Positions 10,589 to 58,395 of a stretch of 63,791 nt of DNA are shown piece by piece. The notes under the pieces were generated by a model, which saw nothing but the letters and a program-made list of their open reading frames with translations, was not told the DNA's origin and did not search any database. Made by a program: the position numbers and the translations under genes. The stretch comes from Robiginitomaculum sp. GTDB taxonomy: Bacteria; Pseudomonadota; Alphaproteobacteria; Caulobacterales; Maricaulaceae. Every line of letters begins with the position of its first letter. The first letter of the stretch is position 1. The stretch is taken from positions 1 through 63,791 of the forward strand of contig JALSYJ010000049.1 in the NCBI GenBank assembly GCA_027071965.1, given 5' to 3'.

Positions 10589-10589
10589 A

Positions 10590-11444: not shown

Positions 11445-11448
11445 TAAA

Positions 11449-20100: not shown

Positions 20101-21207
20101 AAAATTGGCAAATGTGCGTTCTGCTTCCGCTCCATGGATTACGGGAATAATCCGAGAATTTTTTGTCAAAAGCGCTTTAAGCATGTCGCCACTGGAAAAA
20201 ACCAAGGCCCGTTCAGAATAACCTAGTATGTTATCATCATTGATGCTGTCCAATACGACCTTGATGAACGCCAATCCCTCAATCACAGAATCTGCTACGA
20301 TCACCAGTGGAGACTTCTCAGGCTTTTTGGCCCAATTTAGAATTATTGGATCAGCAGATATAATTGCTTGATCAAACAATTGAGGGCCAAGTTCAGGCTC
20401 ACTGTCCGCTGTCCATGTTTCCCACACTTCATCCAGACAAGACACCCCATTAGTAGGCCTGCCCGTTTCGTGAGAAAACCATTCTTGTGCTGCAATTGAC
20501 TGCTCAATCCACTGTTCAAAATCGGATGCATCGTAGGCCCGTACCTCCTTCCACTCACCTTCGGCATTCTTGTCCTTTACCCAATCTGTCTTACCTGCCC
20601 AACTTTGCGGCGTCACAAAAATAAATGTCGTATCTTTTCGCTCCTTTGAGTCAGTTCCATCTGTGCGATTTTTATAATCGCTGTTCGCTTTGCCACCCAC
20701 CTTTTTTGTACATCCAAACTCCCAGCCTGATTTTCCTTTTGGAACCCAAGATGAGGCTTCAGCGGAATCCAAAAAACCATCCCAGCCAGGCTTTTCCCCA
20801 GAATCGTTGCCAGGAAAATCTATGGTAATAATTTCTCTCGAAGTAGAATGTATGAGTGTGCGAAGAAGTACTGGAAGTCGGGTTCTGGCGTTTATCGCAT
20901 TTCCCCATGCCGATATCTCACGTCCAAGAACTTGCTGATGTATGGGTGAATATGGAGTAGGTGTCATAATGGATGACGTCCGAGCGGAGAGCGCGTCGTA
21001 TTCCGCCTGCATTTTAAGCAACTTTTCCGATGATGTCCCCCAAAGTGCTTCTATCTTCTCAGCCAGTTCAGGCGAGAGTGCGGCTTTTCCGTTTAACATT
21101 CGTGACAGCGCTGGACGGCCAATTTTCAACCTCTCTGCAGCTTCAGCATTGGTCATGCCTTCAGGAATAACTTTATTTTTAATGTAAGGGCCGGGGTGTT
21201 TGTTCAT
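17146..21207 (-). CDS. 1353-aa protein: N-terminal HigA/VapI-type XRE HTH fused to a large uncharacterised body
   Basis: The N-terminus HPGPYIKNKVIPEGMTNAEAAERLKIGRPALSRMLNGKAALSPELAEKIEALWGTSSEKLLKMQAEYD matches the HigA-family antitoxin HTH. It is followed by GWDGFLD...SGWEFGCTKK...FIFVTPQSW...ASDFEQWI (possibly nuclease-like) and ~1000 aa with no P-loop or other motif I recognise. Confidence 0.8.
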   Translation of the reverse strand: MNKHPGPYIKNKVIPEGMTNAEAAERLKIGRPALSRMLNGKAALSPELAEKIEALWGTSSEKLLKMQAEYDALSARTSSIMTPTPYSPIHQQVLGREISAWGNAINARTRLPVLLRTLIHSTSREIITIDFPGNDSGEKPGWDGFLDSAEASSWVPKGKSGWEFGCTKKVGGKANSDYKNRTDGTDSKERKDTTFIFVTPQSWAGKTDWVKDKNAEGEWKEVRAYDASDFEQWIEQSIAAQEWFSHETGRPTNGVSCLDEVWETWTADSEPELGPQLFDQAIISADPIILNWAKKPEKSPLVIVADSVIEGLAFIKVVLDSINDDNILGYSERALVFSSGDMLKALLTKNSRIIPVIHGAEAERTFANFSKHLKSIIVYPRNAFPRDADISLDPLGCEAFRSALEKMGCNRDYIDRLSLESGRSLTVLRRRLSQLEAVKRPEWTTNASLARSLGKIALAGTWSAKNTSDQAIVACLADTTNYAEIEQSLNQLLMLDDAPVWSVGQYRGVISKIDSLYAIASSITAQDLNRFFDCCELVLSEDDPSLDLPKEDQWAASMYGKTREISGGLRKALAEMAVLLAVHGNNLFQQRTGIDIEAKANNLVRSLIFPLTVRVLEAHNSDLPHYAEIAPDTFLSILEDDLKSGQKSACLQVIKPEDTGIFGGHHARTGLLWALEKLAWSEKYFLRTVNVLATLSGKKLEDNLANKPINSLMAIFRAWMPQTSADLEQRKKAFDYLTKKFPEVAWEIAVEQFNNMSRMGHYSEKPKWRDYGYGHGEPVSYEERRLFVVHCLEACLNWKKYGLKHLSALIEQTDGLPNEYQARIWDKIKAWAEKATNEEKSILREKVRVTAYSRRATLRAKGDNNYPFDPAEVKAVYNCLKPDDLVWEHEWLFRDFWLLETIYDSDSEEDDYNARQALVEKQRVEALKLIFQKLGKKGIFHLTKIAGAKTLIGQLMVKALGSPSKSIAFIQDIGEENSLSDEDHDNLIIGVMCSVSEATLEEMLNLAEKELTAQQFDRFLRLAPFAPITWSKAESTPARNSAYWENVTAGWAHEDHVAQAVRHLLDHSRPLAALNLAGSRMEHIQPRKIFQILDTLTKSKEDSQDVNQMRQYHISEAFKLLDADSNISKKDLAQLEFRYLRVLENSDYGIPNLENEIVDNPAQFVEAVAYSYRRSDDGVDPDWLNVDDKIAQDYASLMFHFFNRLKTIPGSHEKGDDQTKYLIKWIKDVRQSCRELARSKPGDSEIGHLLSKAPVGEDGVWPCEPVRDALEELATDSMIEGFRVGKYNQRGVVCRGEGGDQERVLEKQYRDWATKLRSTHPVVSGVLNQMADRYLSEAKNYDTEAIVQSRIPY

Positions 21208-27620: not shown

Positions 27621-28151
27621 GTGCATATGCCCAATCTTAAAGGTCCAAAATTTGTTCAATACTTCCAACCTGTCATAAACGGGCTGCGTGATCTTGGTTC
27701 TTCTGCCAAGCCCAAAGAAGTGTATGGCTGGATTGCTGAACATCACGACATTCCCAAAGCGGAAATCGAGGGCACAACGAAGGGCGGGCAATCCAAGTTT
27801 GAGAATAAAGTTGGGTGGGCGCGGTTTTATTTGGCCAAGGCCGGATTGATCGACACAGAACAACGCGGCGTGTGGGTGCTAACCGAACAAGGGCGCAAGG
27901 CTAATCTTTCGCATGATGACGCCTATCAGATGTTCCGCAAAATTCATGATGGCTTCCCCAAGCCAGATAAACAAACCGGCAAGCCCGAGCGGGCGGAACC
28001 CGTTGCCGATGAAGACGCCAGAGAAAACACAACAGCTATCGAACTTGTCGATATCGACCGGTTGTTGGAATTATTGATTGATGAAGGCTTGGGCGTGCCG
28101 GAAACCAAAGCGCTTACAATTGAACACGGATTTTTTGAACCGTATATGTGA
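27621..28151 (+). CDS. Stand-alone Mrr_N-type winged-helix protein (no Mrr catalytic domain)
   Basis: FVQYFQPVINGLRDLGSSAKPKEVYGWIAEH...GGQSKFENKVGWARFYLAKAGLIDTEQRGVWVLTEQG matches the Mrr N-terminal winged-helix pattern. The protein ends after a short acidic tail. Confidence 0.65.
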   Translation: MHMPNLKGPKFVQYFQPVINGLRDLGSSAKPKEVYGWIAEHHDIPKAEIEGTTKGGQSKFENKVGWARFYLAKAGLIDTEQRGVWVLTEQGRKANLSHDDAYQMFRKIHDGFPKPDKQTGKPERAEPVADEDARENTTAIELVDIDRLLELLIDEGLGVPETKALTIEHGFFEPYM

Positions 28152-28184
28152 TTAGGGCGTGCGGAACTTATAGAGGTAGCAACC

Positions 28185-30626
28185 ATGAAATGTTTTCTTT
28201 CCCATAGTAGTGCTGACAAAGGACGCTATGTGTCTATCGTTGCATCCAAACTTGGCCCGTACGCTGAATATGATGAGAAAACTTTTGAAGAGGGTATGGG
28301 TAACCTTGAAGAAATAATGAATGCAATGAACCGGTCACAAATTTTTGTCTTATTTATTTCGGATCATTCGTTGAACTCAAAATGGGTAAAAACGGAAATA
28401 ACTGAAGCAAAAAGGCTGTTAGTAAATGGCGATTTGAAGCGTTTTTTTCCGCTAATTATCGATAAATCCATTACGCATGAAGATAGTCGTTTACCTGAAT
28501 GGATAAGGCAAAATTATAATTTGAGGCCAATCACTCGACCGGTTGTGGCTGCCAAGAGAATTCGCGAAAGAATGATAGAAGCTTCGTGGAAGTCTCACCC
28601 CATGTTGAAAGAGCGGGATCAAATTTTTGTTGGGAGAAACGCGCAAATTGCAGGTTTCGAACAGAGAATAGACGATTTCAATAAAAGGCAACCTCTAGTC
28701 GTTTTTGCCTCGGGTCTTAGGGAGATTGGCAGAAAGGCCACTATGCGTTACTCATTGCGCAAATCAAATATTGTAAGAGACACTTACGACCCCGCTCGCA
28801 TAGACCTGACACAAGAAGACGGTATCGAAGGTTTTATTACAAAGCTCAATGATTTGGGGTTTTCTGAGGCAATAGACATTTCAAATATGATGGTCCGCAA
28901 ACAGCATGAGAAAGCTATTCTCTGCGCCCAATTATTATCTGATTTATTTGATGCAAAGGAGATAATAATTATTGAAGATCATTACTGTATCGTTCGGTTC
29001 GATAGGGATATTGCGCCTTGGTTTTTGCAGGTCATTGACAACCTTGAAAATGAATCTTTGGGACTCTGTATTGCTACTTCCTCAAAGGCTGCAAAATACA
29101 AATACGTACGGGATGACAGATTCTATTTTATGGAAATACCCGAGTTGGAAAGGACAGAAAGAGACGGGTTGTTTAAGCGTTATTCAGAGTATTTGAAACT
29201 TGAGTTATCTCTTGAAGATTTCAGGAATTTTTCCCCGCTCTTAAATGGGTTTCCTGAGCAGGTTACCTATGCCGCAAGCTTGATCGAAAGCCTTGGGAAA
29301 AAAGACGCGTTCGACAAGGCGGATGAGATAGTTTCATTTTCTACATACAAGGCTAGCATTTTTATCAAAAAATACGAAGAAAATGAAGAAATTATATCCT
29401 TCCTTCGATTTATTTCTTCCTTCGAGTTCATATCGCTAGATTTTATTACTTCTATTGAGAGAAAGTTGAGTAAATCACTCAATGAAATTCTTGATCGTTT
29501 ATTGGCTGACAGCGTTTGTGAACCAATTGGAAATGCTGGTCAGTATTTTAGAGTAAACGAAGTTATTAGAGATGCAATCGTTAGAGACAGGACTCGGCTA
29601 ACGGAGGAGTATAGAACTGCCCTGAGATCGTTTGTTGAAAAATTTTCACATGACTATGACGCCGAATACTATGATATTTCTGAATATCATATTGCGATAA
29701 AAGAAGCGCTCACTTCTGGCATAGAGCTTCCAGAGAGCATGCTTATACCTGCCCATTTTCTGAAAACTATGAAGGATTTGTACAATAAAGGAAGCTATCG
29801 CGAAGTTGTTGCGCTAGCAGATAGAGTGCTGCTTAAAGAGGCTTACTACGACAAGCATACATCGCAGGACATTAGGTACTATCTGTGTCAATCATTGGCG
29901 CGCATGCATAATGTTAGATTTACATCTGAGGTCCAGAAAATCAAAGGTCCAGAGCATGATTTTCTATTTGGATTTTATTATCGCTTAAAGGGAAGATATG
30001 ATGACGCGATAGAGCGATATAAGTCTGCAATGAAAGAACAGCGGACGGAGCAGAGGGCGCGACGAGAGTACGTATTTGTTTTGACAACAGTTGAAGCCTA
30101 TGAAGATGCACTATCTTTGGCAAGGGAGAATTACGAGCGGTACCCTTCAAATCCATTCTTAGTGCAAGCATATTTTAATTGCTTGCTTCATACGTCCATT
30201 GACCCGAATTGTGCTGAAAAGTTGCAGGACGTCTTGGATTCACTAAAAAATATACGAGGTGCGCGTGCCAATGAAATGCTTGATACTTTGACGGCTCGAT
30301 ATGAATTTCAGTTTGGGAATAAAGAACTTTCATTTCAGATGATAAACGCAGCGATAGAGATACATACTAACGTAGTGTATCCCATACTAACAAAACTGGA
30401 TATGGCAATACATGACATGCAGCATGATACAATATCGTCATGTGTAAGAAGGCTCGAAAGTGGACGTATTAGTGCAGGTCACAAAGTGGCCATTTTAAAG
30501 GCAAAGGTAATATTGACAGCCATTGAGGGCGACAAACCAAGGGCCTTGAGAATGATTGATAAAGACCTTGGTCATTTGAATGAGAAAGCAAGAGAGAAAC
30601 TTCAATTGCGTGTTCATGCTGCATGA
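28185..30626 (+). CDS. TIR domain - STAND-like NTPase (degenerate Walker A) - TPR protein (813 aa)
   Basis: N-terminal TIR: KCFLSHSSADK...IFVLFISDHSLNSKWVKTEITEA, with a candidate catalytic Glu. Next comes FVGRNAQIAGFEQRI...PLVVFASGLREIGRKAT, which is STAND-like, but GLREIGRK deviates from GxxxxGK[ST]. The C-terminal third has TPR-like repeats (YYRLKGRYDDAIERYKSAMK...). Confidence 0.75.
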   Translation: MKCFLSHSSADKGRYVSIVASKLGPYAEYDEKTFEEGMGNLEEIMNAMNRSQIFVLFISDHSLNSKWVKTEITEAKRLLVNGDLKRFFPLIIDKSITHEDSRLPEWIRQNYNLRPITRPVVAAKRIRERMIEASWKSHPMLKERDQIFVGRNAQIAGFEQRIDDFNKRQPLVVFASGLREIGRKATMRYSLRKSNIVRDTYDPARIDLTQEDGIEGFITKLNDLGFSEAIDISNMMVRKQHEKAILCAQLLSDLFDAKEIIIIEDHYCIVRFDRDIAPWFLQVIDNLENESLGLCIATSSKAAKYKYVRDDRFYFMEIPELERTERDGLFKRYSEYLKLELSLEDFRNFSPLLNGFPEQVTYAASLIESLGKKDAFDKADEIVSFSTYKASIFIKKYEENEEIISFLRFISSFEFISLDFITSIERKLSKSLNEILDRLLADSVCEPIGNAGQYFRVNEVIRDAIVRDRTRLTEEYRTALRSFVEKFSHDYDAEYYDISEYHIAIKEALTSGIELPESMLIPAHFLKTMKDLYNKGSYREVVALADRVLLKEAYYDKHTSQDIRYYLCQSLARMHNVRFTSEVQKIKGPEHDFLFGFYYRLKGRYDDAIERYKSAMKEQRTEQRARREYVFVLTTVEAYEDALSLARENYERYPSNPFLVQAYFNCLLHTSIDPNCAEKLQDVLDSLKNIRGARANEMLDTLTARYEFQFGNKELSFQMINAAIEIHTNVVYPILTKLDMAIHDMQHDTISSCVRRLESGRISAGHKVAILKAKVILTAIEGDKPRALRMIDKDLGHLNEKAREKLQLRVHAA

Positions 30627-30717
30627 CGGTAGCTGACAGTGTTGTTCCGCGTGCTGCCCCGGTGCTGCCCAGAGCAAATTTGGTAAAACGCAAAAGCCAC
30701 TAACCTATTGATTTTAT

Positions 30718-30762
30718 TGGCGCACCCGGCGAGATTCGAACTCACGACCTCTGCCTTCGGAG
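30718..30762 (-). repeat. Diverged copy of the tRNA-Arg(CCG) 3' half (att repeat)
   Basis: tggcgcacccggcgagattcgaactcacgacctctgccttcggag has the same architecture and breakpoint as 6796-6840. The last 17 nt (gacctctgccttcggag) and the T loop are identical to the intact tRNA. The acceptor and T stems carry compensatory-looking differences. Confidence 0.8.
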
Positions 30763-30900: not shown

Positions 30901-30922
30901 TTGGTACCCTCTAGGTACCCCG
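30901..30922 (+). repeat. Left copy of a perfect 22-bp direct repeat, ttggtaccctctaggtaccccg
   Basis: It is identical to 58233-58254, and the flanks on both sides are unrelated. It lies 76 nt upstream of the integrase start. Confidence 0.9.
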
Positions 30923-30998: not shown

Positions 30999-32249
30999 AT
31001 GCCTAAAAAATCGCAACAGAAGCTCACCAAGAAGGTTATGGACAACCTCTCTGTAATTCCCGGAAAGGACTACTCTGTTTGGGATAGTGAGCTTGCCGGA
31101 TTTGGCGTTCGGATCAAACCATCTGGCAAGAAGTCATTTCAAATCAAATACCGGACGGAAAGCGGTCGCCAGCGTAAAACAACTTTGGGAAGCTATGGGC
31201 GGCTCACCGTTGAGCAAGCAAAAAAGCTGGCGCGGATCGAGCTTGGGTTAGTTGCTGCCGGTGAAGATCCCGCAGCCGTTCGCATTCGAAAGAAGCAGGC
31301 ACAAAGCGTGGCTGAGCTTTGTGATAAATATTATTCTGATGCCGTTTCTGGCAAAATTCTTTATCGTGGAAAAACTAAGAGCCAATCGACGTTGGCTATA
31401 GATAAGGGGCGCATCAATAGACACATCAAACCTCTTTTGGGAGCCAGAAAATTTGCGGACCTAACACGCGCTGATATTGAGAACTTTATGTTCGCTGTTC
31501 GTGACGGCAAAACAGCCTTGCGAGAGAAAACGGGGCCGCGTGGTTTGGCTCGTGTAAAGGGTGGGATGGGGACAGCAAAAAAGGCAGTTTCTCTTTTGTC
31601 GTCCATTTACAGGTATGCAATCCGTGAAGGATTGATCGAGCACAACCCCTGCCAATATGTCGAATTGCCAGCCGACAATAAACGCACAAGATTTTTGAAT
31701 GAAGACGAATATGGGCACTTTGGGCAAGCTCTCCAAAATGTTCGACAAACCACCACCTATGATCTGGCTTGTCAGGCAATTTTGGTTCTGGCCCTAACCG
31801 GCTGTCGCAGGAGTGAAATTCTGAACCTAAAGCGTGAAGAAGTGGATTTCAAAGGCAGATGCTTGCGATTGCAAAGCACCAAAACCGGCCCACAAATCCG
31901 GCCCTGTGGAAAGGCTGCGCTCGACATATTGAGAAAATTATTGACGCACCATAAAAGCTATTTCGTGTTTCCATCCGGTCGAGGTGATGGCCCTATAACC
32001 AATATCAGATCGCCCATGGTGATGATTGTTCGTCAAGCTGAGTTGGAAGATGTGACGCCACATACATTGCGCCATAGCTATGCCACGGTGGCGCACGAGC
32101 TTGGGTATAGCGAGCTGACCATTGCTGGTTTACTTGGCCACAGTGCTGCCAGTGTCACCAGTCGTTACGCGCACCATGTGGATCATGTGCTCGCAGATGC
32201 GGCAGATAAGGTATCGGCGTTGATTTTGGGTCGCCTCAATTCAGAATAA
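30999..32249 (+). CDS. P4-like tyrosine integrase with a DUF4102 arm-binding N-terminus
   Basis: VWDSELAGFGVRIKPSGKKSFQIKYRTESGRQRKTTLGSYGRLTVEQAKKLA is DUF4102-like. The catalytic C-terminus is HTLRHSYATVAHELGYSELTIAGLLGHSAASVTSRYAH. Confidence 0.9.
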   Translation: MPKKSQQKLTKKVMDNLSVIPGKDYSVWDSELAGFGVRIKPSGKKSFQIKYRTESGRQRKTTLGSYGRLTVEQAKKLARIELGLVAAGEDPAAVRIRKKQAQSVAELCDKYYSDAVSGKILYRGKTKSQSTLAIDKGRINRHIKPLLGARKFADLTRADIENFMFAVRDGKTALREKTGPRGLARVKGGMGTAKKAVSLLSSIYRYAIREGLIEHNPCQYVELPADNKRTRFLNEDEYGHFGQALQNVRQTTTYDLACQAILVLALTGCRRSEILNLKREEVDFKGRCLRLQSTKTGPQIRPCGKAALDILRKLLTHHKSYFVFPSGRGDGPITNIRSPMVMIVRQAELEDVTPHTLRHSYATVAHELGYSELTIAGLLGHSAASVTSRYAHHVDHVLADAADKVSALILGRLNSE

Positions 32250-32331: not shown

Positions 32332-32625
32332 ATGGCTATGAGCAAAACAGAATATGTCAGGGCGCGTATCCAGCCAGAGATAAAAGATCAGGCGGGTGCA
32401 ATTTTAAGTGAACTTGGTCTTTCCATGTCCGAGGCGATTTCCCTGTACATGAACCAGATTGTCAAACATCGTGGCATTCCGTTTCCGGTCAAATTGCCAA
32501 ATGACGAATTGCTTGCATCATTTCAGCAAAAAGAAAATGGTGAGTTAGAGGAAATTGATGATTTTGAGGCCTATACAGAATCGCTTATAATGGAAGCCGA
32601 TGAAGAGCGTAAAGCAAACCAGTAA
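32332..32625 (+). CDS. dinJ: RelB/DinJ-family antitoxin
   Basis: VRARIQPEIKDQAGAILSELGLSMSEAISLYMNQIVKHRGIPFPVKLPN is a typical DinJ ribbon-helix-helix. It overlaps the toxin gene. Confidence 0.85.
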   Translation: MAMSKTEYVRARIQPEIKDQAGAILSELGLSMSEAISLYMNQIVKHRGIPFPVKLPNDELLASFQQKENGELEEIDDFEAYTESLIMEADEERKANQ

Positions 32626-32869
32626 GTTCAAAAGACAATACAAAACCTGTATCAAGCGTGGTTGTGATCTTCCCAAATTTCTTGCAATTCTAAATTTGCT
32701 ACGCGCAGACAAACCGCTTCCTGTGCGGTGCCGGCCTCATAAACTTGGTGGCAATTACAAAGACAAATGGGAATGTCACATCGAACCTGACTGGCTCCTC
32801 ATCTATGAATTTGATGAGGAAACCGTATATTTGCTTGGTACCGGCACCCATTCTGACCTTTTTCGATAG
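32600..32869 (+). CDS. yafQ: YafQ/RelE-family mRNA interferase toxin
   Basis: FKRQYKTCIKRGCDLPKF...LPVRCRPHKLGGNYKDKWECHIEPDWLLIYEFDEETVYLLGTGTHSDLF matches YafQ-family toxins. It overlaps the dinJ end by 26 nt. Confidence 0.85.
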   Translation: MKSVKQTSKFKRQYKTCIKRGCDLPKFLAILNLLRADKPLPVRCRPHKLGGNYKDKWECHIEPDWLLIYEFDEETVYLLGTGTHSDLFR

Positions 32870-33394: not shown

Positions 33395-35698
33395 ATGAAA
33401 ACAGGCGAATCAAAAATACTGGAGTCGTTAGCTATTACTCAAGCCGCTAGGCAACGTGAATTTGGCAAAAGACGAAAATCTTACGATGAACAGAGATTTG
33501 AGTTCTCTTTGGTACAAGATCGAGAATCTGAAGGCTGGATTTCAACCCGCTCTTTGAAGACGGGTATGAAAATGCGTCGTTCCAAGTCTTTTGATGAAAT
33601 TCTAGAAAACAGGTTTTGGTGCGTTTTGTATAAGTTCGGATACGCCGAACTGAATGTAGGTCGAAAATTTACGGTGCCAATTAAAAATCGGGAAAAACAA
33701 ATTTCAAAGCAAATCGACGTTTTTGCCAAGGATGATGAAACCGTAGTTGTTGCTGAATGCAAGGCTTCGAAAACACTTAGAAAAAGGTCAATGCTCAAAG
33801 ACCTTGGCGAATTTGATGCGAATAAAAAATCAATAGCCGACGCAATAAAAAAGCATTATGGGAAAGATTTCAAACCAAAGATATTATGGTTTTTCGTGAC
33901 CGATAATATTCGCTGGTCTGATAATGATTTAGCTCGTGCTAAGGAAAATAAAATCAATGTCGTGCGTGCACGAGAATTGCTTTATTTTGAAGAATTCGCA
34001 AATAAGATGGGGAAAGCTTCAAAATATCAATTCCATGCTGAATATCTTGCGGGCCAATCAATTCCGGCATTATCCGGGAGAAAAATCCCTGCTGTTGCTA
34101 CTAAACTAGGAGGTAAAAGGGCATATATTTTCTCGGCTCGAGCCGTCGATATTCTTAGAATCGCGTTCGTAAATCATCGAGATCTGCGTGACCCAAGTGG
34201 AGCGCCCTCTTACCAAAGATTGGTGAATCCAAATAGACTAAAACAAATAGGAAAATTTTTAGATGAGGGTGGGTATTTTCCAAATACCATTTTACTGAAT
34301 TTTCATACAAAACCTCGGTTTGATAAAGTCGGGAAAGATAGTCAAAGCTCATTACAGTTTGGGGAAATTTACTTACCAGATAAATACAAAAGTTGTTGGG
34401 TGGTTGATGGCCAACACAGATTATATGGGTGCACATCTGCAGAAAACATGGAAACCATTCCCAATCTTTTTTTTATTGCCTTTGAGGGAATATCAGCAGT
34501 TGAAGAAGCAAATACATTTGTCACTATCAACGATAAACAAACAAAAGTTCCCAAAAAACTTATTGCAGAACTTGATGGCGACATAAAATGGGATTCGAAA
34601 AACCCGAATGAAAGACTTTTGGCAATTGCATCGCGAGCTGTCGATCTGCTGAACACTAAAGGCGGTAGCCCTTTTGAAAACAAAGTTGTTACTCCAGGAG
34701 TTACCGCATCAACTACACAACCCCTAAACTTGCCTCAAATGCAACAAGCAATTTGCCAATCAAAATTGATTGGAAGCGTTTGTCGAAGGACTGGAGAAAT
34801 ATTGCCAGGCCCGTGTTGGGACAGTGACTCTGAAGGGAGCCTTCATCGTCTAGTGAAATTACTATGTTGGCATTTTGAAAATATCGAAGAAGCTAATCCG
34901 GAGAGATGGAATGCTGGAAAAACTGAATATCTTTGCTCCAATTTTGGAGTAGCTAGCCATATTCGGTTAATAGCAGAATTGATTGAATATATTTCAAAAA
35001 AGGAGCATTTCAATTCAGTTGAATGTAGTTTAACTGAAATTCAAGATGCTCTAAAATGCTACTTTAAGCCAGTAATTGATTATATTTCAACAGCAGAAAA
35101 CAAGGATTTTGAAGAACGATTCAAAGTTCCTTTCGGCTCAGGTGGTTTACCTCGATATTATTTTAAATTGGTGGAATTGGTTCGAAAAAAATATCCTGAT
35201 TGGGAACCTGAGGGCTATGAAGACTACATTCAAACAATTTCTGACGAAGAAGCAATTCAAGCGGATAATGATGTAAAATGGGTACAAAACAGGGTACAAA
35301 AATATGTTGTTGACGAATTAAAGAAAAAATATGGTAAAAGTTTTTTTGAACGTGGTGTGCCAAAGCACATTCAAAAAGAATGTCAGAGTAAGAGAATTGA
35401 AGATGATCCAGATAAACAATACTCAGTAGAAACATATCTCGAATGGATCAACATCAAGCAAATTGTGGAGCAAAAAAATGAGAAGGAATTTTTTACAAAA
35501 TCCTTGAGTATTCGACTTCCTGACGAAGGCCGTAAATTGTTTTTTCACACAAAATGGTTTGACGTGTTCAATGAAACAAGACGCATTCAAGCTCATCCAG
35601 TGGGTAGCCGTCACTATCGAGAAAACGATCTTGCTTTTCTCAAGTTAATCACTGAGGAACTGAAGAAAAAACTTTCCAAAACCCAAGGAGATGCGTAG
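33395..35698 (+). CDS. 767-aa fusion: PD-(D/E)xK nuclease-like N-domain + DGQHR (DndB/ParB-like) domain + C-terminal Swt1-type HEPN-like domain
   Basis: N-domain: IDVFAKDDETVVVAECKAS (D...E-x-K). Middle: SYQRLVNPNRLKQIGKFLDEGGYFPNTILLNF...CWVVDGQHRLYG...ANTFVTINDKQTKVPKKLI (DGQHR/DndB pattern). C-terminus: YLEWINIKQIVEQKNEKEFF...WFDVFNETRRIQAHPVG, carrying an Rx4H HEPN motif. Confidence 0.75.
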   Translation: MKTGESKILESLAITQAARQREFGKRRKSYDEQRFEFSLVQDRESEGWISTRSLKTGMKMRRSKSFDEILENRFWCVLYKFGYAELNVGRKFTVPIKNREKQISKQIDVFAKDDETVVVAECKASKTLRKRSMLKDLGEFDANKKSIADAIKKHYGKDFKPKILWFFVTDNIRWSDNDLARAKENKINVVRARELLYFEEFANKMGKASKYQFHAEYLAGQSIPALSGRKIPAVATKLGGKRAYIFSARAVDILRIAFVNHRDLRDPSGAPSYQRLVNPNRLKQIGKFLDEGGYFPNTILLNFHTKPRFDKVGKDSQSSLQFGEIYLPDKYKSCWVVDGQHRLYGCTSAENMETIPNLFFIAFEGISAVEEANTFVTINDKQTKVPKKLIAELDGDIKWDSKNPNERLLAIASRAVDLLNTKGGSPFENKVVTPGVTASTTQPLNLPQMQQAICQSKLIGSVCRRTGEILPGPCWDSDSEGSLHRLVKLLCWHFENIEEANPERWNAGKTEYLCSNFGVASHIRLIAELIEYISKKEHFNSVECSLTEIQDALKCYFKPVIDYISTAENKDFEERFKVPFGSGGLPRYYFKLVELVRKKYPDWEPEGYEDYIQTISDEEAIQADNDVKWVQNRVQKYVVDELKKKYGKSFFERGVPKHIQKECQSKRIEDDPDKQYSVETYLEWINIKQIVEQKNEKEFFTKSLSIRLPDEGRKLFFHTKWFDVFNETRRIQAHPVGSRHYRENDLAFLKLITEELKKKLSKTQGDA

Positions 35699-36573
35699 TG
35701 CAACCGTTCCTAAAATGGGCGGGTGGAAAACGATGGTTGGTTCAGCAAATCCCTCAAATTTTCCCGTTTGAATATAATACATATCTTGAACCCTTCTTGG
35801 GCTCAGCTGCATGTTTCTTTTACTTGGAACCTGAACGTTCGATATTGTCTGATACAAATGGCAAGCTAATTGAGACATACCTAGCTCTAAAAAAATCCCA
35901 CGCCAAAGTTCATGATTTGCTTAAATATCACGCAAGAAATCATTCTGAAGCACATTATTATAAAGTGCGCGCTCAAAAATTGAACGCCCTTCATACAAAG
36001 TCTGCCCAGTTCATTTACTTGAATAGAACCTGTTACAACGGCCTTTACCGTGAAAATAAAAAAGGCATATTTAATGTGCCAAAGGGCACAAAAACAAGCG
36101 TGATTTTATCAACTGATGATTTTAACAAAACAGCCGGTTTGTTGAAGCACTCTGAACTTTGCCATTGTGATTTTGAAGATACAATTGATCGTGCAAATGA
36201 AGGTGATTTAATTTTTGCTGATCCACCATATACCACTGCTCACAACTTAAATGGGTTTGTTAAATACAATCAGAATATATTCAGTTGGAAAGATCAAGAA
36301 CGCTTGAAAGAGGCTCTCGTTAGGGCTGATATGCGGGGCGTGAAAATTCTCGTCACTAATGCAGCCCATCAATCAATTCTAGAGCTTTATTCAGATTTTG
36401 GAAATATTTTTGTATTGAACCGAAGAAGCGTGATCTCAGGACTGAATAAAGGTAGGAGCGATACTTCTGAGTTCCTGATCTCAAATTATAAACTCCCATG
36501 TACGGATATTGAGGAGCTGAAACTTAAAATGCCTCTTTCAAAAGAATATCAAAATTTCGATGCCAGCCCCTAA
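35698..36573 (+). CDS. Dam-family (D12 class) N6-adenine DNA methyltransferase
   Basis: QPFLKWAGGKRWL (motif X/I region), EPFLGSAACFF and catalytic IFADPPYTT. The GTG start shares one nucleotide with the TAG stop of the upstream gene (taGtg). Confidence 0.85.
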   Translation: MQPFLKWAGGKRWLVQQIPQIFPFEYNTYLEPFLGSAACFFYLEPERSILSDTNGKLIETYLALKKSHAKVHDLLKYHARNHSEAHYYKVRAQKLNALHTKSAQFIYLNRTCYNGLYRENKKGIFNVPKGTKTSVILSTDDFNKTAGLLKHSELCHCDFEDTIDRANEGDLIFADPPYTTAHNLNGFVKYNQNIFSWKDQERLKEALVRADMRGVKILVTNAAHQSILELYSDFGNIFVLNRRSVISGLNKGRSDTSEFLISNYKLPCTDIEELKLKMPLSKEYQNFDASP

Positions 36574-36610: not shown

Positions 36611-37405
36611 TTAGTTCCAAATTATCAACTCTCCAGCCGTCTTTCTTTTGGCCTCGGCAATGGAATAGGTGACGTTTACTTCTTCCATCTGGAACGCCTG
36701 AAAATTCTCCCGAATTGCCGGACAGTCATTCAGTGAGAGAATGAAGCGGCCTCTGATGCTGGCCAACAGGTCGGCAATTTTCTCAAAGTCAGATTTGCTG
36801 AACAATTGAGAGCCATATTCGCCCTCAGTCCCCCAGTACGGTGGATCAAGATAGAATAGCGTTGATGGTTTGTCATAACGCTTGATACATTCCTCATAGC
36901 TCAGGTTTTCGATAACAACGCCAGACAGACGTTCATGTAATTTTTCGACAATGGGGCCGACCTTGAGGCTGTTGAACCGTGCTGTGGTTTCAGGGGCAAC
37001 GCCAAACGCACGTCTTTCCAGACGCCCACCAAAAGCATTTTTCTGTAAATACAAAAATCTTGCGGCGCGTTCCAAATCCGTTAGCGTAGCTGGGTCAGTC
37101 ATTTTAAGCCGCATAAAATCCTGACGGTTGGTGAGCATAAAGCGCATCATATCCATGAACGGGCCGTAATGGCGTTGCAGGATACGAAACAGGTTTGTCA
37201 CCTCGCCATTATAGTCATTGATGACCTCGCATGGCGGTCGGTGATCACGGCGAAAGAACACACCGCCCATGCCACAAAACGGCTCCACATAGGTCTTGTG
37301 CGAAACGGCATTGATCCGCTTAATCAGGGTGGCGGCAAGGTTTCTTTTGCCGCCAATATAGGGTGCCGGTGGTTTGGCCGGGGATACTTTTGCCAACTGG
37401 TTCAT
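36611..37405 (-). CDS. Second D12-class N6-adenine DNA methyltransferase (orphan, phage/MGE type)
   Basis: APYIGGKRNLA, VEPFCGMGGVFF and LFYLDPPYWGTEG. It is convergent with the first methylase and has an ATGA overlap with the AlpA-like gene upstream. Confidence 0.85.
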   Translation of the reverse strand: MNQLAKVSPAKPPAPYIGGKRNLAATLIKRINAVSHKTYVEPFCGMGGVFFRRDHRPPCEVINDYNGEVTNLFRILQRHYGPFMDMMRFMLTNRQDFMRLKMTDPATLTDLERAARFLYLQKNAFGGRLERRAFGVAPETTARFNSLKVGPIVEKLHERLSGVVIENLSYEECIKRYDKPSTLFYLDPPYWGTEGEYGSQLFSKSDFEKIADLLASIRGRFILSLNDCPAIRENFQAFQMEEVNVTYSIAEAKRKTAGELIIWN

Positions 37406-37632
37406 AATCCTGCCTCCTGAACGAATGTGGTTGAAGTGGCTTTTCTACCCAGCATAAAAGCTTCCAAGTCCTCTTGCCGATAGCGGACGGCCCGGCCCAT
37501 TTTAATGAATACCGGGCCACCGCCATGGCAGCGCCATTTATTTAATGTCGAGACGGCCAAGCCCAGATAAAGGGCGGCTTGGCGAACGCTCATGACTATT
37601 GTGGCCGGGTTTTCTTTTGTCGTGATGTGCAT
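37402..37632 (-). CDS. AlpA/excisionase-family HTH regulator
   Basis: MSVRQAALYLGLAVSTLNKWRCHGGGPVFIKMGRAVRYRQEDLEAFM. The start may be the internal Met at 37593. Confidence 0.7.
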   Translation of the reverse strand: MHITTKENPATIVMSVRQAALYLGLAVSTLNKWRCHGGGPVFIKMGRAVRYRQEDLEAFMLGRKATSTTFVQEAGL

Positions 37633-37829: not shown

Positions 37830-38462
37830 TTAATCGAGAGCAACAAGGAAAAGCGTTACCTTGTTGCTCTCGATTTCTATGCGCTTGGTGGTGGCTTCGA
37901 GTATGTCCCGTTTGGTTGAAAGGGACAGAGTTGCCCATTTGGAATAAAGGTTATCAAAGGGAGAGCGGCTTTTGGTTTGATAATATTGTGATTTTAATTG
38001 TTCAATAAAGATGGCTTCCAAATCTGCTTTATGGATTTTAGCTTTGCAGGTTCGGCAAACATATTTGTGACTGCCCGAAGGCACATACATTTTATCACCG
38101 CACTGACAAAACAATAGCCCGGCAAAAAGGTGTGCAGGTTTTCGTTTTGCGCCGCCCTTTTGGGATTTCAATATGTCTTGGCATTTTCGGAATAGAGCAC
38201 GCGGGATCAGCGCTTCGACCTTGCCGGTTTCGCCGGTGACTTTTTCATCATTAAGCAAGCGCCCAACGGTCTGGCCGGTGAAGTAGGCATCATTTCTGGT
38301 TTTGAATCCTTCGGCGTTCAGTATCTCAGCCACGGTTTTTTTACGTCGATGTTCCAGAAAAAGCTCGAACAGTCGTTTGCGAATTGGGGCTTCTTTTCCA
38401 TCGAGCACCAGCTTGTCGCCGTCTCTTTTGTATCCAAAACTGGTGGGGCCAGAGCGCGCCAT
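37830..38462 (-). CDS. Serine-recombinase 'recombinase + zinc-ribbon' domains without the N-terminal catalytic resolvase domain
   Basis: The protein begins MARSGPTSFGYKRDGDKLVLDGKEAPIRKRLFELF...AEILNAEGFKTRNDAYFTGQTVGRLL (recombinase domain) and continues with FCQCGDKMYV...YVCRTCKAKI (zinc ribbon). No S-containing resolvase domain precedes it. The start is 1 nt after the stop of the 862-aa gene. Confidence 0.65.
   Translation of the reverse strand: MARSGPTSFGYKRDGDKLVLDGKEAPIRKRLFELFLEHRRKKTVAEILNAEGFKTRNDAYFTGQTVGRLLNDEKVTGETGKVEALIPRALFRKCQDILKSQKGGAKRKPAHLFAGLLFCQCGDKMYVPSGSHKYVCRTCKAKIHKADLEAIFIEQLKSQYYQTKSRSPFDNLYSKWATLSLSTKRDILEATTKRIEIESNKVTLFLVALD
37832..37875. repeat. Perfect 17-bp inverted repeat (aatcgagagcaacaagg / ccttgttgctctcgatt) with a 10-nt loop
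   Basis: The arms are at 37832-37848 and 37859-37875. The palindrome encodes the last ~15 codons of the 37830-38462 ORF. No T-run follows on either strand. Confidence 0.85.
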
Positions 38463-38463
38463 A

Positions 38464-41052
38464 TCATTCAGCCGATTTCAGGACACGGGCCAGTTGTTCC
38501 CGGCGCATTTCAAGGTCGGCATCGGTGGCGTAGGCCATTTTGATGGCTACAGAATAGCCCCGAACGGTGCTGCCTTCCTCGCTGTGTAAATCGCTTCTGG
38601 CTTCGATCTCGGCGGGTAAATTATCCGGTGTGAAGAACTTTACCTCAGAGCGCCCAGCAATCATTTTTTCGATCTCTTGGAGCTTGGTTATGTCTTCTGA
38701 AATCACCCAGACTTCATCGGCCCCGGCGGCAAGGCATTTCTCGATATTCTGCACCTCATAGTCATTGGGCGTAGTGACAGTGATCTCACAGGCGATACAA
38801 AGCCCGGCACGGCTCATCCATACGTCAATCGCCCCATCTGCCACCTGATATTCCAGATCAGCCTTCCAGCCATACTGGTTGGCCAGACTTTTGACCATGT
38901 TCTGAATTCGGGTGTGCTCCTTGCCACCGCGCCCGGTGATTTCCGGCTGTCCCTCAGGCTGGCTTTGCAGCTTGGTTGGAAGCAGCATATCCGCGTGAGC
39001 TACTTGCTCGAGCTTGGCTTTACCCATGCCCGGAAAGACGATGTTTTGCGCACTGTCTTGCGGTTCATATTTCCAGCAATAGGATTTACGATTTTGCGTG
39101 AGCATCTTCTCAAAAGAAACCTGATCCATCTGCTTTTGGCTTTCAAGCAACCCAAATATTACGGAAACTCTGATGGCTTCTGGAACATCATGTCTAATCC
39201 AAAAGGCAAAGTCGGTATCCCATTTGCTCTTGGACATAGATTGCAGAAAATCACTTGAGGTGCGCATTTCCTGCGCCAGCAACCAGGCATCTTTGGCATT
39301 CACGCCGCCGCAAGCCTTTATGCTGGTGTTGGCCAGCACACTGGCACGCTCAGATGTGCTCAACTGGTCGGTATGCTGATGGGCTAGTATCAGCCCAATT
39401 TTTCGTTTGCGGCCTTGCGCCAGAAGAACCTCAATCGTTTCGTCAAAATAGTCCTGGCATTCATCCACATAAAGATAAGTCGGTGTGCGTTCGCCTTCCG
39501 GGATCACGGCGCGCTCCATGATGGCCTGCCCAATCATGGAGAGGAAAAAACGGCCATAAAGGGACGCGCCGTCTTGTTTCAGCAAGTCCTTGGCGGTGTT
39601 GATGAGAATAATGCTGCCGTCATTGAGCTTGGAATAAAGGTCAATCTTGTTTTCCTGTGATGAAAACAACCGCTCAAAGGCCGGGGTGGAAAGTACGCCC
39701 CAAAGCCGTTTGGAGATTTGGCGTTTGGTCTGGTTAAAGCTTTTGTCTAAAAACTCTCTGGCAAAGAAAACCCGCGCACTGCCCGTGAGTTTATCCATAT
39801 AGGGGATGAAGGGTTTGGGGTCGTCCATTAAATCGCGCAAGGTAAGAATGGTGGCGTTTGGAATTTCCAGCATCAGCCGGGCCAGATATTTGAACACCAC
39901 CCCTTGTTTAGCGGTTAGCTCTGCACCCAAAAGCTCGCCAAAGAAATGCTCATAAAGCGCAATGGCCGAGTTTTGCACCTTTTCCCGCTCAACGGCCCCG
40001 TATGAATTCAACCTCTTTTCATCCAGCGCAAACATGTTGATTGCCGCCGGGTAAAGAACATCGGTCGGGTCGATCATCACCAGTTTGTCTTTTAAGGCTC
40101 CATGATCGGGGTGAAAAACATCCAGCCGTGATATTTTCTGGATCATATCGCCTTGGCTATCGACCACCACAACAGAGCGTTTCTCACGCACCGCTACACC
40201 CAAATCCCGGAGTATCCATTTTTGCAAGAATTGCGTTTTACCGTGCCCGGTGCCACCCATAATATGGGTATGTTCAAACCGCGCCGCATCATTTACCGCA
40301 AGTGGTAATTCCATATTGAAGAATTGCCGAAAAGGCGTGCCGACAAGATAAGTATCGACCAGTTCTTGCGCATCCAGTCCGACCGCCTTTTTGGGCGTAA
40401 CGAAGCGATGATGGTTGGAAGGCACGTTCCTTGGATCAATTTTTGAGGCTCGAAAGAGGTTAGCTTCCAGCCGATGACGAAGCGGATCAAGCAAATTGAA
40501 GTGGATAAGTTCCTCATCAAAGGAATTGCCCATCACGTTTTCAACCGCGTCGGCAGCATCATCGACAATGCTGGCAAAGCGAATGCGAAAAAAGGCATCA
40601 TGCGCATTTTCTTCCAGTGCGTAGCCCGGAATAAGGTCCAGCAAATATCGACAGATAAAAGTGAGATGGCTTTGCAATTCGGCCATAGCCGGGTCATAGT
40701 TTTCTATAAACCGGATTTGCCGCCGCAGATATTCGCGTACTTCCATTGCGTCCCGGCTATCGGGCCGAAGGGCAAGCACATTTTCACCAAGTGGGGCCAA
40801 AGCCTCGTCCGCGTAAAAGGCTTTGCACAGGTCAATCAGGGCATAGACGATGGGCGTTGAAAGCTCATACTCTAACCCGACTATGGCTGGCGCAAGAACC
40901 TCACCGGCAAAGGCTGTGTCGTCCAGTTCAGCAAGAGGAGAACTGGCCCGAAGACGCGCAGCCTGTTCCCATACCTCTTTGGTGTTGCCAAGTGCGCCTG
41001 TGTTTTTCCTGATGCCAAGCGAAAAGGGTTTTAATGCCCAAAAGCCCGACAT
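38464..41052 (-). CDS. 862-aa T4CP/FtsK-HerA-superfamily ATPase with a C-terminal PD-(D/E)xK-like domain
   Basis: Walker A IMGGTGHGKTQFL, Walker B TYLYVDECQDYF and LILAHQHTDQL. The C-terminal ~130 aa (GGKEHTRIQNMVKSLANQYGW...AIDVWMSRAGLCIACEITV...ADEVWVIS) look restriction-endonuclease-fold-like. Confidence 0.7.
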   Translation of the reverse strand: MSGFWALKPFSLGIRKNTGALGNTKEVWEQAARLRASSPLAELDDTAFAGEVLAPAIVGLEYELSTPIVYALIDLCKAFYADEALAPLGENVLALRPDSRDAMEVREYLRRQIRFIENYDPAMAELQSHLTFICRYLLDLIPGYALEENAHDAFFRIRFASIVDDAADAVENVMGNSFDEELIHFNLLDPLRHRLEANLFRASKIDPRNVPSNHHRFVTPKKAVGLDAQELVDTYLVGTPFRQFFNMELPLAVNDAARFEHTHIMGGTGHGKTQFLQKWILRDLGVAVREKRSVVVVDSQGDMIQKISRLDVFHPDHGALKDKLVMIDPTDVLYPAAINMFALDEKRLNSYGAVEREKVQNSAIALYEHFFGELLGAELTAKQGVVFKYLARLMLEIPNATILTLRDLMDDPKPFIPYMDKLTGSARVFFAREFLDKSFNQTKRQISKRLWGVLSTPAFERLFSSQENKIDLYSKLNDGSIILINTAKDLLKQDGASLYGRFFLSMIGQAIMERAVIPEGERTPTYLYVDECQDYFDETIEVLLAQGRKRKIGLILAHQHTDQLSTSERASVLANTSIKACGGVNAKDAWLLAQEMRTSSDFLQSMSKSKWDTDFAFWIRHDVPEAIRVSVIFGLLESQKQMDQVSFEKMLTQNRKSYCWKYEPQDSAQNIVFPGMGKAKLEQVAHADMLLPTKLQSQPEGQPEITGRGGKEHTRIQNMVKSLANQYGWKADLEYQVADGAIDVWMSRAGLCIACEITVTTPNDYEVQNIEKCLAAGADEVWVISEDITKLQEIEKMIAGRSEVKFFTPDNLPAEIEARSDLHSEEGSTVRGYSVAIKMAYATDADLEMRREQLARVLKSAE

Positions 41053-41509: not shown

Positions 41510-42679
41510 TTAGGCAAGGGTTTTCCCGCTAAAGGGACGTGACGGCGCACCATCAATCATTAGTTTCAGGTCTATGTGGTAATTGGGAAGGGTGATTAAA
41601 TCCAGCTCACAAAACCTTGGGGCAAACTCTCTGGCAATACTGCCAGCGTCCTTGGCGCTTAGGCGAAAGGATATGAGCGTGCCGCTATTGCCAAGAATGG
41701 CATCGCGTATCTCCGGCTCTATCTGGTTCAGATATTGATGGGAAAGAACCAATGAGAGATGGAATTTGCGTAACTCCGAAGCCATCTCTGCAATGGAAAG
41801 CGTGGTGAAGTTTTGAAACTCATCCATATAGAGGTGAAAGTTAGCGCGTTGGTCTTCTGGTATGTCCTGCCGTGAATACGCAGCCAGTGCCATGGTGGTG
41901 ACAAGCAGGCCCCCTAGCAAACCGGCAGCATCTTCCCCGATTTGCCCTTTGGCGAGATTGACCAGAAGGATTTGTCGCTCATCCATAATCTGGCGAAACG
42001 ATAAGTCCTTTTTTGGCGCAATGAGAATTCGTCTTACATTCGGATCAGTCAGAAATGCTCCCACCTTGTTTTGAATGGGAGCGATGGCGTTTAGGCGAAA
42101 GGGTTCGGAATATTTTGCATATTCCTGCGCCCAGAAATATTTGACCTGCTTATTTTGCAAGCTCCGAGCAATACGGTTTCTGTAGGTCTTGTTGGTAAGC
42201 AATTTCAGGATGTCGGACAGGTCGGAACCTCGCACTTCCATCAGGGTCAAAATGCAATTGCGCAAGATGTGCTCCATTCGTGCGCCCCAGCTATCTCCCC
42301 ACAGCTTCTTAAACACCTCCAGCACACCCGATGCCGCCAAACTGCGCTTGTCCTCGCGTACAAAGCGAAGCGGATTGTATCCGTAGACTTGGTGGACTTC
42401 GGGGACGTTTAGATAGGTCACTTCATCTTTTCGGTGTTCCGGTATGTCGGCATAAATGCTTTCCACCAGATCGCCATGGGGGTCAATCAGGCACACGCCG
42501 CGCCCGGCCTCTATATCCTGCAAGATCATGTTTTTCAGCAAGGTGGACTTGCCGGTGCCGGTTTTACCGATGATATAGGTATGCGAAAGTCGGTCGGCCT
42601 GCCTGATGCCAAATTTCCTGTATGGCAACCGGCCATTGGTTTGTGCAAGATAGGTGATTTCGTTGGGTATGTGGGGCAT
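41510..42679 (-). CDS. 389-aa T4CP-like (TraD/TrwB/DUF87-type) P-loop ATPase lacking a transmembrane anchor
   Basis: Walker A IIGKTGTGKSTLL, CLIDPHGDL, Walker B FHLYMDEFQNF, and LVLSHQYLNQI...GNSGTLISFRL. No hydrophobic N-terminal helices are present. Confidence 0.7.
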   Translation of the reverse strand: MPHIPNEITYLAQTNGRLPYRKFGIRQADRLSHTYIIGKTGTGKSTLLKNMILQDIEAGRGVCLIDPHGDLVESIYADIPEHRKDEVTYLNVPEVHQVYGYNPLRFVREDKRSLAASGVLEVFKKLWGDSWGARMEHILRNCILTLMEVRGSDLSDILKLLTNKTYRNRIARSLQNKQVKYFWAQEYAKYSEPFRLNAIAPIQNKVGAFLTDPNVRRILIAPKKDLSFRQIMDERQILLVNLAKGQIGEDAAGLLGGLLVTTMALAAYSRQDIPEDQRANFHLYMDEFQNFTTLSIAEMASELRKFHLSLVLSHQYLNQIEPEIRDAILGNSGTLISFRLSAKDAGSIAREFAPRFCELDLITLPNYHIDLKLMIDGAPSRPFSGKTLA

Positions 42680-58232: not shown

Positions 58233-58254
58233 TTGGTACCCTCTAGGTACCCCG
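58233..58254 (+). repeat. Right copy of the perfect 22-bp direct repeat, ttggtaccctctaggtaccccg
   Basis: It is identical to 30901-30922 and lies 64 nt from the 3' end of the intact tRNA-Arg. Confidence 0.9.
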
Positions 58255-58318
58255 CAAACATATTCAGAAAAATGTTTGCCGATGTTTAGGTGTAACGTAT
58301 TGAATTTATGGAAAGTTT

Positions 58319-58395
<77 letters not shown>

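Follow-up and report, generated by a model that had tools for sequence, protein, structure and literature searches.

The window analyzed here is a stretch of 63,791 nucleotides (nt) from Robiginitomaculum sp. (GenBank assembly GCA_027071965.1, contig JALSYJ010000049.1, positions 1 to 63,791). The window is a metagenome scaffold and carries two adjoining genes that encode a multidomain effector and a Dam/DpnM-like N6-adenine DNA methyltransferase (positions of all features are collected in Table 1). With a little more confidence than doubt, the pair is interpreted as a self-contained two-gene restriction-modification (R-M)-like defense module with a combined DNase/RNase effector, carried as cargo by a mobile element integrated at a tRNA-Arg gene.

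The two genes are translationally coupled. At their junction, AGGAGATGCGTAGTG, the TAG stop codon of the effector and the GTG start codon of the methyltransferase overlap by 1 nt and have the G at position 35698 in common. An AGGAG sequence sits 7 nt 5' of this GTG, which is the sole in-frame start upstream of FLKWAGGK, the opening motif of Dam-family enzymes. The open reading frame (ORF) list and the sequence agree with the initial annotation of this DNA on the gene positions, the 767-amino-acid effector and the stop-start overlap. That annotation had also described the module as AT-rich, and its G+C content is indeed 0.38, compared with 0.455 for the window and 0.43 and 0.49 for the 5-kb flanks. 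Scans for promoters and terminators returned nothing exceeding shuffled expectation, and a megablast search of the module against Escherichia coli genomes and plasmids gave no match.

Domains of the effector and its methyltransferase

The central part of the effector matches the DGQHR model TIGR03187 with 126.5 bits, against a cut-off of 58.85, over profile positions 1 to 275 of 276. The motif set of this family (PMC4619093) is present as Q274-R275, D338-R342 and F375..N379, in the stretches NHRDLRDP..YQR (residues 260 to 275), DGQHR (338 to 342) and FVTIN (375 to 379), and the Q, R, DGQHR and N are identical in all 179 family sequences over which motif conservation was counted. The equivalog models of DndB (TIGR04172; 61.4 bits, cut-off 450) and DpdB (NF041060; 74.5 bits, cut-off 300) are missed by far. 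The effector thus contains a DGQHR domain but is neither DndB nor DpdB, and its assignment to the DndB family in the initial annotation holds at the level of the domain only. The window effector has no Pfam match at an E value of ≤0.1, including PF14072 (cut-off 29.1 bits), although many of its homologs do carry PF14072. The full-length AlphaFold2 model of the effector has a mean predicted local distance difference test score (pLDDT) of 83.6 and a predicted template modeling score of 0.73. In a Foldseek search of the BFVD viral structures, this model retrieved DndB-like, DUF262, GmrSD_N and ParB proteins with E values down to 3e-9.

Foldseek and family-wide Pfam matches support a PD-(D/E)xK nuclease domain of the Card1/Hjc-like subtype in the N-terminal part of the effector, where a restriction endonuclease fold had been proposed from the sequence. 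Searched against the PDB, the domain retrieved Cdn1, VC1899, Card1, Can2, AF1548 and EndoMS/NucS at probabilities of 0.94 to 1.0, with one match only at an E value of ≤0.001; the match to AF1548 has a template modeling score of 0.47 and a root mean square deviation of 3.0. Matches to McrC (probability 0.41 to 0.63) and Hjc (0.51 to 0.54) were weaker. PADLOC CARF_PDDEXK matches residues 83 to 197 (E = 0.0017). When the N-terminal 195 residues of 49 members were scanned with Pfam, Card1_endonuc matched in 33 of them and Hjc in 25, with further matches to HSDR_N_2, NERD, Mrr_cat and Cas4; all these matches are weak (best E, 6e-6), and all fall in the PD-(D/E)xK clan. The putative catalytic residues D108 and E121-x-K123 (residues 108 to 123, DVFAKDDETVVVAECK) are intact in the window copy and lie, in the AlphaFold2 model, on neighboring strands of one β-hairpin. 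The small region that precedes this domain (residues 1 to 65) has no family match.

The evidence divides on the Swt1-type HEPN domain that had been proposed for the C terminus. The Rx4H motif (R729-RIQA-H734) is present within W721..N726..R729-x4-H734 (residues 721 to 734, WFDVFNETRRIQAH). HEPN_Swt1 (PF18731) is the most recurrent Pfam match over 71 members (11/71; best E, 1.7e-4); Abi_2, from the same clade, comes next. The truncated member P0244 reaches 34.7 bits, above the HEPN_Swt1 cut-off of 27.5, and matches the C-terminal family profile at 2e-15. Against this, the window effector itself scores 13.1 bits (E = 0.12). A dedicated model of residues 577 to 767 is all-helical (pLDDT, 86.7), and its Foldseek search against the PDB gave no match with an E value of <0.7, so that the HEPN fold was not recovered. 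Sequence-profile searches of the PDB with full-length and C-terminal profiles returned noise only (ferritin and a designed binder). When the C-terminal profile was compared with 1.84 billion representatives, the best 150 matches listed all belonged to the same family, so that no other architecture containing the domain was revealed; matches of 430 to 600 amino acids were N-terminally truncated fragments of this family. Since the fold search gave no significant match, the HEPN call rests on the motif, on transitive homology and on a published listing of a ParB-HEPN fusion (PMC3710099), which together lend a Swt1-like HEPN domain remote support only.

The partner enzyme scores 218.9 bits with TIGR00571 (dam), against a cut-off of 114.85, and matches PF02086 at 8.7e-44, as expected for the Dam-like methyltransferase that had been annotated. 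The solved structure nearest to it is DpnM (2dpm; 1.5e-43), followed by E. coli Dam. The residues of E. coli Dam that contact GATC, which we take from the literature on the Dam-DNA structure to be K9, Y119, N120, L122, R124, N126, N132 and P134, are all identical in the window methyltransferase. Across 68 partner methyltransferases, R124, N126, N132 and P134 are invariant, N120 is kept in 67 and K9 in 60, position 122 is L or I in 66, and position 119 is always aromatic; DPPY is kept in all 68 Dam-like partners. The retention of these contact positions makes GATC the probable target.

Family spread and motif conservation

A homolog search detected 1,222 effector homologs, mostly full length at approximately 765 amino acids and all under generic names. 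When one genome was scanned per species, relatives occurred in at least 527 genomes, belonging to Alpha-, Beta- and Gammaproteobacteria, Desulfobacterota, Acidobacteriota, Planctomycetota, Verrucomicrobiota, Gemmatimonadota, Nitrospirota, Actinomycetota and others. Linkage was judged in 80 loci, of which 3 were set aside because contig ends lay too near the effector. In 74 of the 77 assessable loci, spread over diverse phyla, an N6-adenine methyltransferase directly adjoins the effector. It is Dam-like and directly downstream on the same strand in 63 loci and Dam-like and directly upstream in 4; in 2 loci the neighbor is an MT-A70 adenine methyltransferase, in 4 a divergent D12-class enzyme of 375 to 455 amino acids, and in 1 (L073) the effector is fused to a D12 methyltransferase. 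The effector gene of another locus (L052) is degraded. Short overlaps between the two genes are found in most related loci, commonly of 4 or 8 nt where the methyltransferase lies downstream. No third conserved gene was found across the 80 loci, only antisense shadow ORFs. Effector and methyltransferase co-diverge, their pairwise identities being correlated (Mantel r = 0.41, p = 0.001). The initial annotation had made its proposal depend on linkage of the two genes in other genomes, and this linkage was found, since 74 of the 77 loci are paired. Because the partner has been swapped among three lineages of adenine methyltransferases, the conserved requirement is adenine methylation rather than one particular protein.

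The motifs of the three effector domains differ in their conservation. The DGQHR, QR and NH motifs are identical in 179/179 sequences, and the HEPN motif is nearly as constant (N726 in 177, R729 in 178 and H734 in 176 of 179; W721 near-invariant). The PD-(D/E)xK triad D108/E121/K123 is intact in 141 and altered in 38 (∼21%), with E121 changed to K, R, I or Q and K123 to R, Q, M or W. The closest homolog, P0002 (71% identity), carries E121R and K123W, resides on a mobilizable element and keeps its adjoining methyltransferase. This pattern suggests that the effector has an indispensable core made up of its DGQHR and HEPN domains. Active-site migration is known in the PD-(D/E)xK superfamily, and D113, E115 and C122 of the nuclease domain stay nearly invariant across the family, so that loss of DNase activity is not proven by an altered triad.

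These counts bear on a plainer reading, in which the pair is a Type II-like R-M system: an oversized endonuclease would cut unmethylated sites, probably GATC, with the DGQHR domain serving for DNA binding or recognition only and the HEPN-like domain being structural or inactive. The tight, R-M-style pairing and coupling agree with it, as do the triad intact in the window copy and in 141 of the 179 sequences, the sub-threshold HEPN score of the window effector and the unrecovered HEPN fold. It is nevertheless a doubtful reading, since the HEPN and DGQHR/QR/NH motifs (176 to 179 of 179) are more conserved than the triad, the opposite of what is expected for a DNase-only effector, and since triad-disrupted members still keep an active-looking methyltransferase.

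Dam-family enzymes act without a partner, and this speaks against a second alternative, in which the DGQHR protein controls or assists the methyltransferase and no restriction takes place. Its basis is the homology of the DGQHR domain to DndB, which is a transcriptional regulator (PMC4507180), and to DpdB, which is an ATPase cofactor (PMC12839542). The wide failure of both equivalog models, and the presence of two nuclease-type domains with near-invariant catalytic motifs, for which a regulator has no need, make it most improbable.

Two divergent arrangements were seen within the family. The fused locus L073 (Methylocystis sp. H62, positions 7977 to 10766) encodes in a single ORF of 929 amino acids the first ∼560 effector residues, with the nuclease and DGQHR domains, followed by the D12 methyltransferase; the HEPN region is lost, and the protein may have arisen by deletion or may represent a natural R-M fusion. 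Distant paralogs of ∼30% identity, with restriction endonuclease (REase), DGQHR and HEPN regions, lie on pNL1 of N. aromaticivorans (L081, 4863 to 11361) and on a plasmid of Agrobacterium sp. S7/73 (L082, 203 to 10097). They have no adjoining methyltransferase and are instead accompanied by a conserved trio consisting of a DGQHR protein of ∼340 amino acids, a B12-type radical SAM protein of ∼540 amino acids and a GHKL/HSP90-like ATPase of ∼510 to 545 amino acids. None of the curated families names the trio proteins, which could form an uncharacterized DNA-modification module partnered with the same effector.

Genomic surroundings

An integrase gene and a RelB/YafQ pair lie upstream of the module, in keeping with the integrase and DinJ-YafQ-type pair noted in the initial annotation. 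Beside the integrase is a tRNA 3' fragment that repeats, in direct orientation and with 77% identity, the 3' part of an intact tRNA-Arg(CCG) gene; the partner of this attachment site escaped an exact pattern search and was recovered as the 77%-identical repeat. An exact 22-nt repeat, TTGGTACCCTCTAGGTACCCCG, occurs just inside both element ends. These two repeats delimit an integrative element of ∼27.6 kb, inserted at tRNA-Arg, of which the module is cargo.

Table 1. Positions of the module, its domains and motifs, and surrounding features in the window
Feature	Position	Strand	Remarks
Effector gene	33395-35698	+	ATG start; ORF of 767 amino acids; PD-(D/E)xK, DGQHR/ParB-like, helical linker and HEPN-like regions
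Small N-terminal alpha/beta region, residues 1-65	33395-33589	+	Model secondary structure; invariant E22, R26, E32, W48
Card1/Hjc-like PD-(D/E)xK nuclease domain, residues 66-205	33590-34009	+	Foldseek against PDB, PADLOC, Pfam clan matches
Putative catalytic D108, E121-x-K123	33716-33763	+	
DGQHR (ParB/Srx-fold) domain, residues 233-529	34091-34981	+	TIGR03187
DGQHR-domain motifs	34172-34195, 34211-34219, 34406-34420, 34517-34531	+	NHRDLRDP, YQR, DGQHR, FVTIN
Helical linker region, residues 530-616	34982-35242	+	Model secondary structure
Candidate Swt1-like HEPN domain, residues 617-767	35243-35695	+	HEPN_Swt1 recurrence across family, motif conservation
W721..N726..R729-x4-H734	35555-35596	+	
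Coupling junction	35686-35700	+	AGGAG 35686-35690, TAG 35696-35698, GTG 35698-35700 (sequence)
Dam/DpnM-like N6-adenine DNA methyltransferase gene	35698-36573	+	GTG start; ORF of 291 amino acids
Methyltransferase motifs	35707-35730, 35788-35811, 36220-36231	+	FLKWAGGK; S-adenosylmethionine motif EPFLGSAA (residues 31-38); DPPY (residues 175-178)
tRNA 3' fragment	30706-30762		Beside integrase
22-nt direct repeat	30901-30922, 58233-58254		Exact
Integrase	30999-32249		Upstream of module
RelB/YafQ pair	32332-32869		Upstream of module
tRNA-Arg(CCG)	58319-58395 (repeat-bearing region 58307-58395)		
Second D12-class adenine methyltransferase	36611-37405	-	264 amino acids
HTH_17 (excisionase-like) gene	37402-37632	-	
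Recombinase without catalytic N-terminal domain	37830-38462	-	
TraD/TrwB/HerA-like ATPases	38464-41052, 41510-42679	-	Weak MADS mad8 matches, ∼1e-16
335-amino-acid protein	58533-59540	-	mad3 9e-33, AriA; also mad8-like
CBASS-like pair	1423-4256		Oligonucleotide cyclase, PADLOC 2.7e-99; patatin-type phospholipase effector, 2.3e-90
GmrSD_N (DUF262, ParB-like) and Schlafen AlbA_2 fusion	4611-6722		703 amino acids; PADLOC HEC-05 1.3e-19
Complete Type I R-M system	6945-14502		hsdM 6945-9266, hsdS 9263-10588, hsdR 11449-14502
ORF between hsdS and hsdR	10590-11444		284 amino acids; no Pfam match
ORF with N-terminal HTH_3	17146-21207	-	1,353 amino acids
Mrr_N-only protein, then TIR-NLR protein	27621-30626		176 and 813 amino acids; TIR-NLR PADLOC 6.6e-190

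The position on an integrative element, beside a RelB/YafQ addiction pair, bears on a third alternative, a selfish cassette that would stabilize the mobile element by post-segregational killing: loss of the pair would dilute methylation and trigger the RNase or DNase. The low G+C content of the cargo and the location of the closest homolog on a mobilizable element fit this idea as well. Such a function is compatible with a role in defense, as many R-M systems do both, and the defense-island surroundings favor immunity, so that addiction as the main role is regarded as very unlikely.

A PADLOC scan covered 25 large ORFs of the window. It found no Dnd, Ssp or Dpd components among them other than a subfamily, DpdB-like similarity of the DGQHR domain of the effector, as the initial annotation had stated for dnd, ssp and dpd genes. 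To the left of the element lies a defense island with a pair resembling a cyclic oligonucleotide-based antiphage signaling system (CBASS), a GmrSD_N-Schlafen fusion, a Type I R-M system, an Mrr_N protein and a TIR-NLR protein. The GmrSD_N-Schlafen fusion is a second ParB-fold defense protein of the window. For the ORF of 1,353 amino acids, HTH_3 is the sole recognizable feature, and there is no PADLOC match.

The second D12-class adenine methyltransferase gene, which the initial annotation did not mention, is convergent with that of the module and lies 38 nt downstream of it; it has a G+C content of 49% and matches PF02086 at 5.4e-24 and PADLOC MTase_II at 3.2e-65. It is followed by the HTH_17 and recombinase genes. 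As it is not kept beside the module in other loci, it is probably the gene of a neighboring unit or an orphan methyltransferase. The methylation-associated defense system (MADS), recognized by mad1 to mad8 around a methyltransferase, was considered and rejected, because the mad-like matches fall on the ATPases and on the 335-amino-acid protein and none on the module genes; these mad-like proteins look like conjugation or defense ATPases of the element.

Proposed mechanism and comparison with known systems

In the preferred interpretation as an R-M-like defense module, the Dam/DpnM-like methyltransferase would mark host DNA with N6-methyladenine, probably at GATC, and the ParB-fold DGQHR domain would bind DNA and a nucleotide triphosphate (NTP) and act as both sensor and switch. 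On unmarked DNA, this domain would release the PD-(D/E)xK DNase, the HEPN RNase, or both. Invader DNA would be restricted, and cleavage of RNA, leading to growth arrest or abortive infection, would form a fused second arm. Methylation would protect the host from its own effector, whichever of the two domains is the one that kills, and the pair would serve against viruses. The linkage in 74 of 77 loci, the lack of a third conserved gene, the co-divergence of the two proteins, the swapping of the partner among adenine methyltransferases, the retained DPPY and GATC-contact positions, the domain matches of the effector, the defense-island context of the window and the presence of the closest homolog on a mobilizable element speak for this interpretation. 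It is the best-supported reading, with further support by analogy: in GmrSD, BrxU and SspE, a ParB-like NTPase domain controls the nuclease fused to it according to DNA modification (PMC4619093, PMC12707154, PMC9646914), with an activity that is NTP stimulated (PMC12707154); binding of ATP and GTP is known for a DndB-like protein (PMC12704722); in R-M systems, REase and ParB nucleases occur fused to HEPN domains (PMC3710099); and PD-lambda-5, a validated two-gene system that includes a methyltransferase, was termed a compacted “RM+Abi” by its authors (Vassallo et al. 2022, PMC9519451).

Several observations weigh against it. At least eight triad-altered members (L001, L008, L046, L057, L058, L060, L063 and P0002) keep the adjacent methyltransferase, and with an intact methyltransferase beside an altered triad, the methyltransferase must be retained for more than the DNase site. 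In two loci (L005 and L017), the effector has no detectable neighboring methyltransferase. The fold search with the C-terminal model did not recover a HEPN fold. The gene order, nuclease before methyltransferase, leaves the nuclease undelayed after transfer; EcoRI has this order too. For both the window and the module, the observed/expected ratio of GATC is ∼1, a lack of depletion that is uninformative. Finally, the literature, including a 2025 ParB-fold survey and a 2025 R-M review, yielded no description of the pairing and no experiment on any family member.

The erosion of the DNase triad next to fixed HEPN and DGQHR motifs yields a testable prediction on which activity the methyltransferase protects against. 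A tentative and rather unlikely extension would be a distinct class of modification-dependent immunity in which the ParB-fold NTP switch would read adenine methylation, the HEPN RNase would be the indispensable output (methylation-gated abortive infection) and the DNase would be optional. The same chassis would be reused with the module of DGQHR, B12-type radical SAM and GHKL proteins, which may install an unknown DNA modification.

If the preferred interpretation is true, hundreds of bacterial species carry such an R-M-like system, and a methyltransferase that currently counts as a usual Type II enzyme or as an orphan guards against a three-domain effector acting on DNA and RNA. The role of ParB-fold NTP switches in immunity would widen from Type IV enzymes, which depend on modification, to a system that is protected by it, and the module would be a compact natural case of one polypeptide combining restriction with abortive infection. 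Should the methyltransferase indeed act on GATC, the effector could be a new methylation-sensitive enzyme for this site.

Among known systems, GmrSD, BrxU and SspE resemble the effector in having a ParB-fold domain whose motifs comprise FxxxN, a QR pair and the P-motif DGQ(Q/H)R (PMC4619093), in its fusion to a nuclease and in the reading of DNA modification. They differ in having an HNH nuclease, no HEPN domain and no pairing with an adenine methyltransferase; moreover, GmrSD and BrxU attack modified DNA, whereas SspE needs phosphorothioate (PT). Membership in the GmrSD/SspE Type IV group was rejected, as the effector has no DUF262 or DUF1524 match in Pfam and BrxU is just a low-probability Foldseek match. 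The likeness to SspE underlies a fourth alternative, in which the ParB-like domain would sense N6-methyladenine in host DNA and thereby activate the effector against invaders, with methylation required as a cofactor instead of serving as a shield. A homologous NTPase domain, the ParB-like DUF262, is found in SspE, whose activity “relies on PT modification in host DNA” (PMC9646914), and both the placement of the methyltransferase gene after the effector and the swappable class of the partner would suit such licensing. SspE-type effectors carry the HNH/DUF1524 nuclease that is absent here according to Pfam. This alternative is regarded as unlikely.

DndB and DpdB share the TIGR03187 domain family with the effector and are likewise tied to a DNA-modification enzyme. 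They are proteins of ∼350 to 380 amino acids without PD-(D/E)xK that act as a regulator or an ATPase cofactor. Both were rejected as identities of the effector on their equivalog scores; in addition, no Dnd model matches among the 25 large ORFs scanned and no third gene is conserved in the 80 loci, and Dpd partners occur neither among the ORFs scanned nor as conserved neighbors in these loci. Apart from the DpdB-like similarity, the effector is not covered by any PADLOC v2 model.

The adjoining, co-inherited methyltransferase and nuclease genes that mark Type II R-M systems are present here, as the linkage and Mantel results show. Within this type, the GATC systems of the DpnII/MboI type come closest in their two-gene layout, with a methyltransferase nearest DpnM (M.DpnII) and retained GATC-contact residues; the 767-amino-acid partner with its ParB-like and HEPN domains is unrelated to R.DpnII or R.MboI. 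PD-lambda-5 embodies the same concept of a compact “RM+Abi” pair, but was rejected as an identity, as the effector has no match to PD-Lambda-5_A and the methyltransferase matches PD-Lambda-5_B at 9.1e-8 versus 3.3e-99 for the generic MTase_II. Card1, Can2, Cdn1 and Hjc share the PD-(D/E)xK subtype of the N-terminal domain; the effector differs from Card1, Can2 and Cdn1 in lacking a CARF domain and a context of cyclic-oligoadenylate sensing. EcoprrI-PrrC couples a Type Ic R-M system to a HEPN RNase, a latent anticodon nuclease, as a second line of defense (PMC3710099). There, PrrC forms a protein of its own that includes an ABC-type ATPase and is restrained by the R-M complex, whereas here the RNase would be fused to the putative restriction subunit.

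The closest precedent is a catalogue entry. Under Swt1-like HEPN domains, a ParB (Saro_3948) fusion is listed as “mostly active” (Anantharaman et al. 2013, PMC3710099, Table 1), which shares with the effector a ParB-fold domain fused to a HEPN domain of the Swt1/Abi2 clade. The entry is a single line and notes neither the N-terminal REase nor the Dam pairing nor the family spread. The full-length relative on pNL1 of N. aromaticivorans, 30% identical and without an adjoining methyltransferase, is not confirmed to be Saro_3948. The statement of the initial annotation that no characterized system has this architecture thus agrees with the literature, except that the ParB-HEPN fusion itself had been catalogued in 2013. 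Among the papers found, none describes the N-terminal nuclease domain or the conserved pairing with an adenine methyltransferase.

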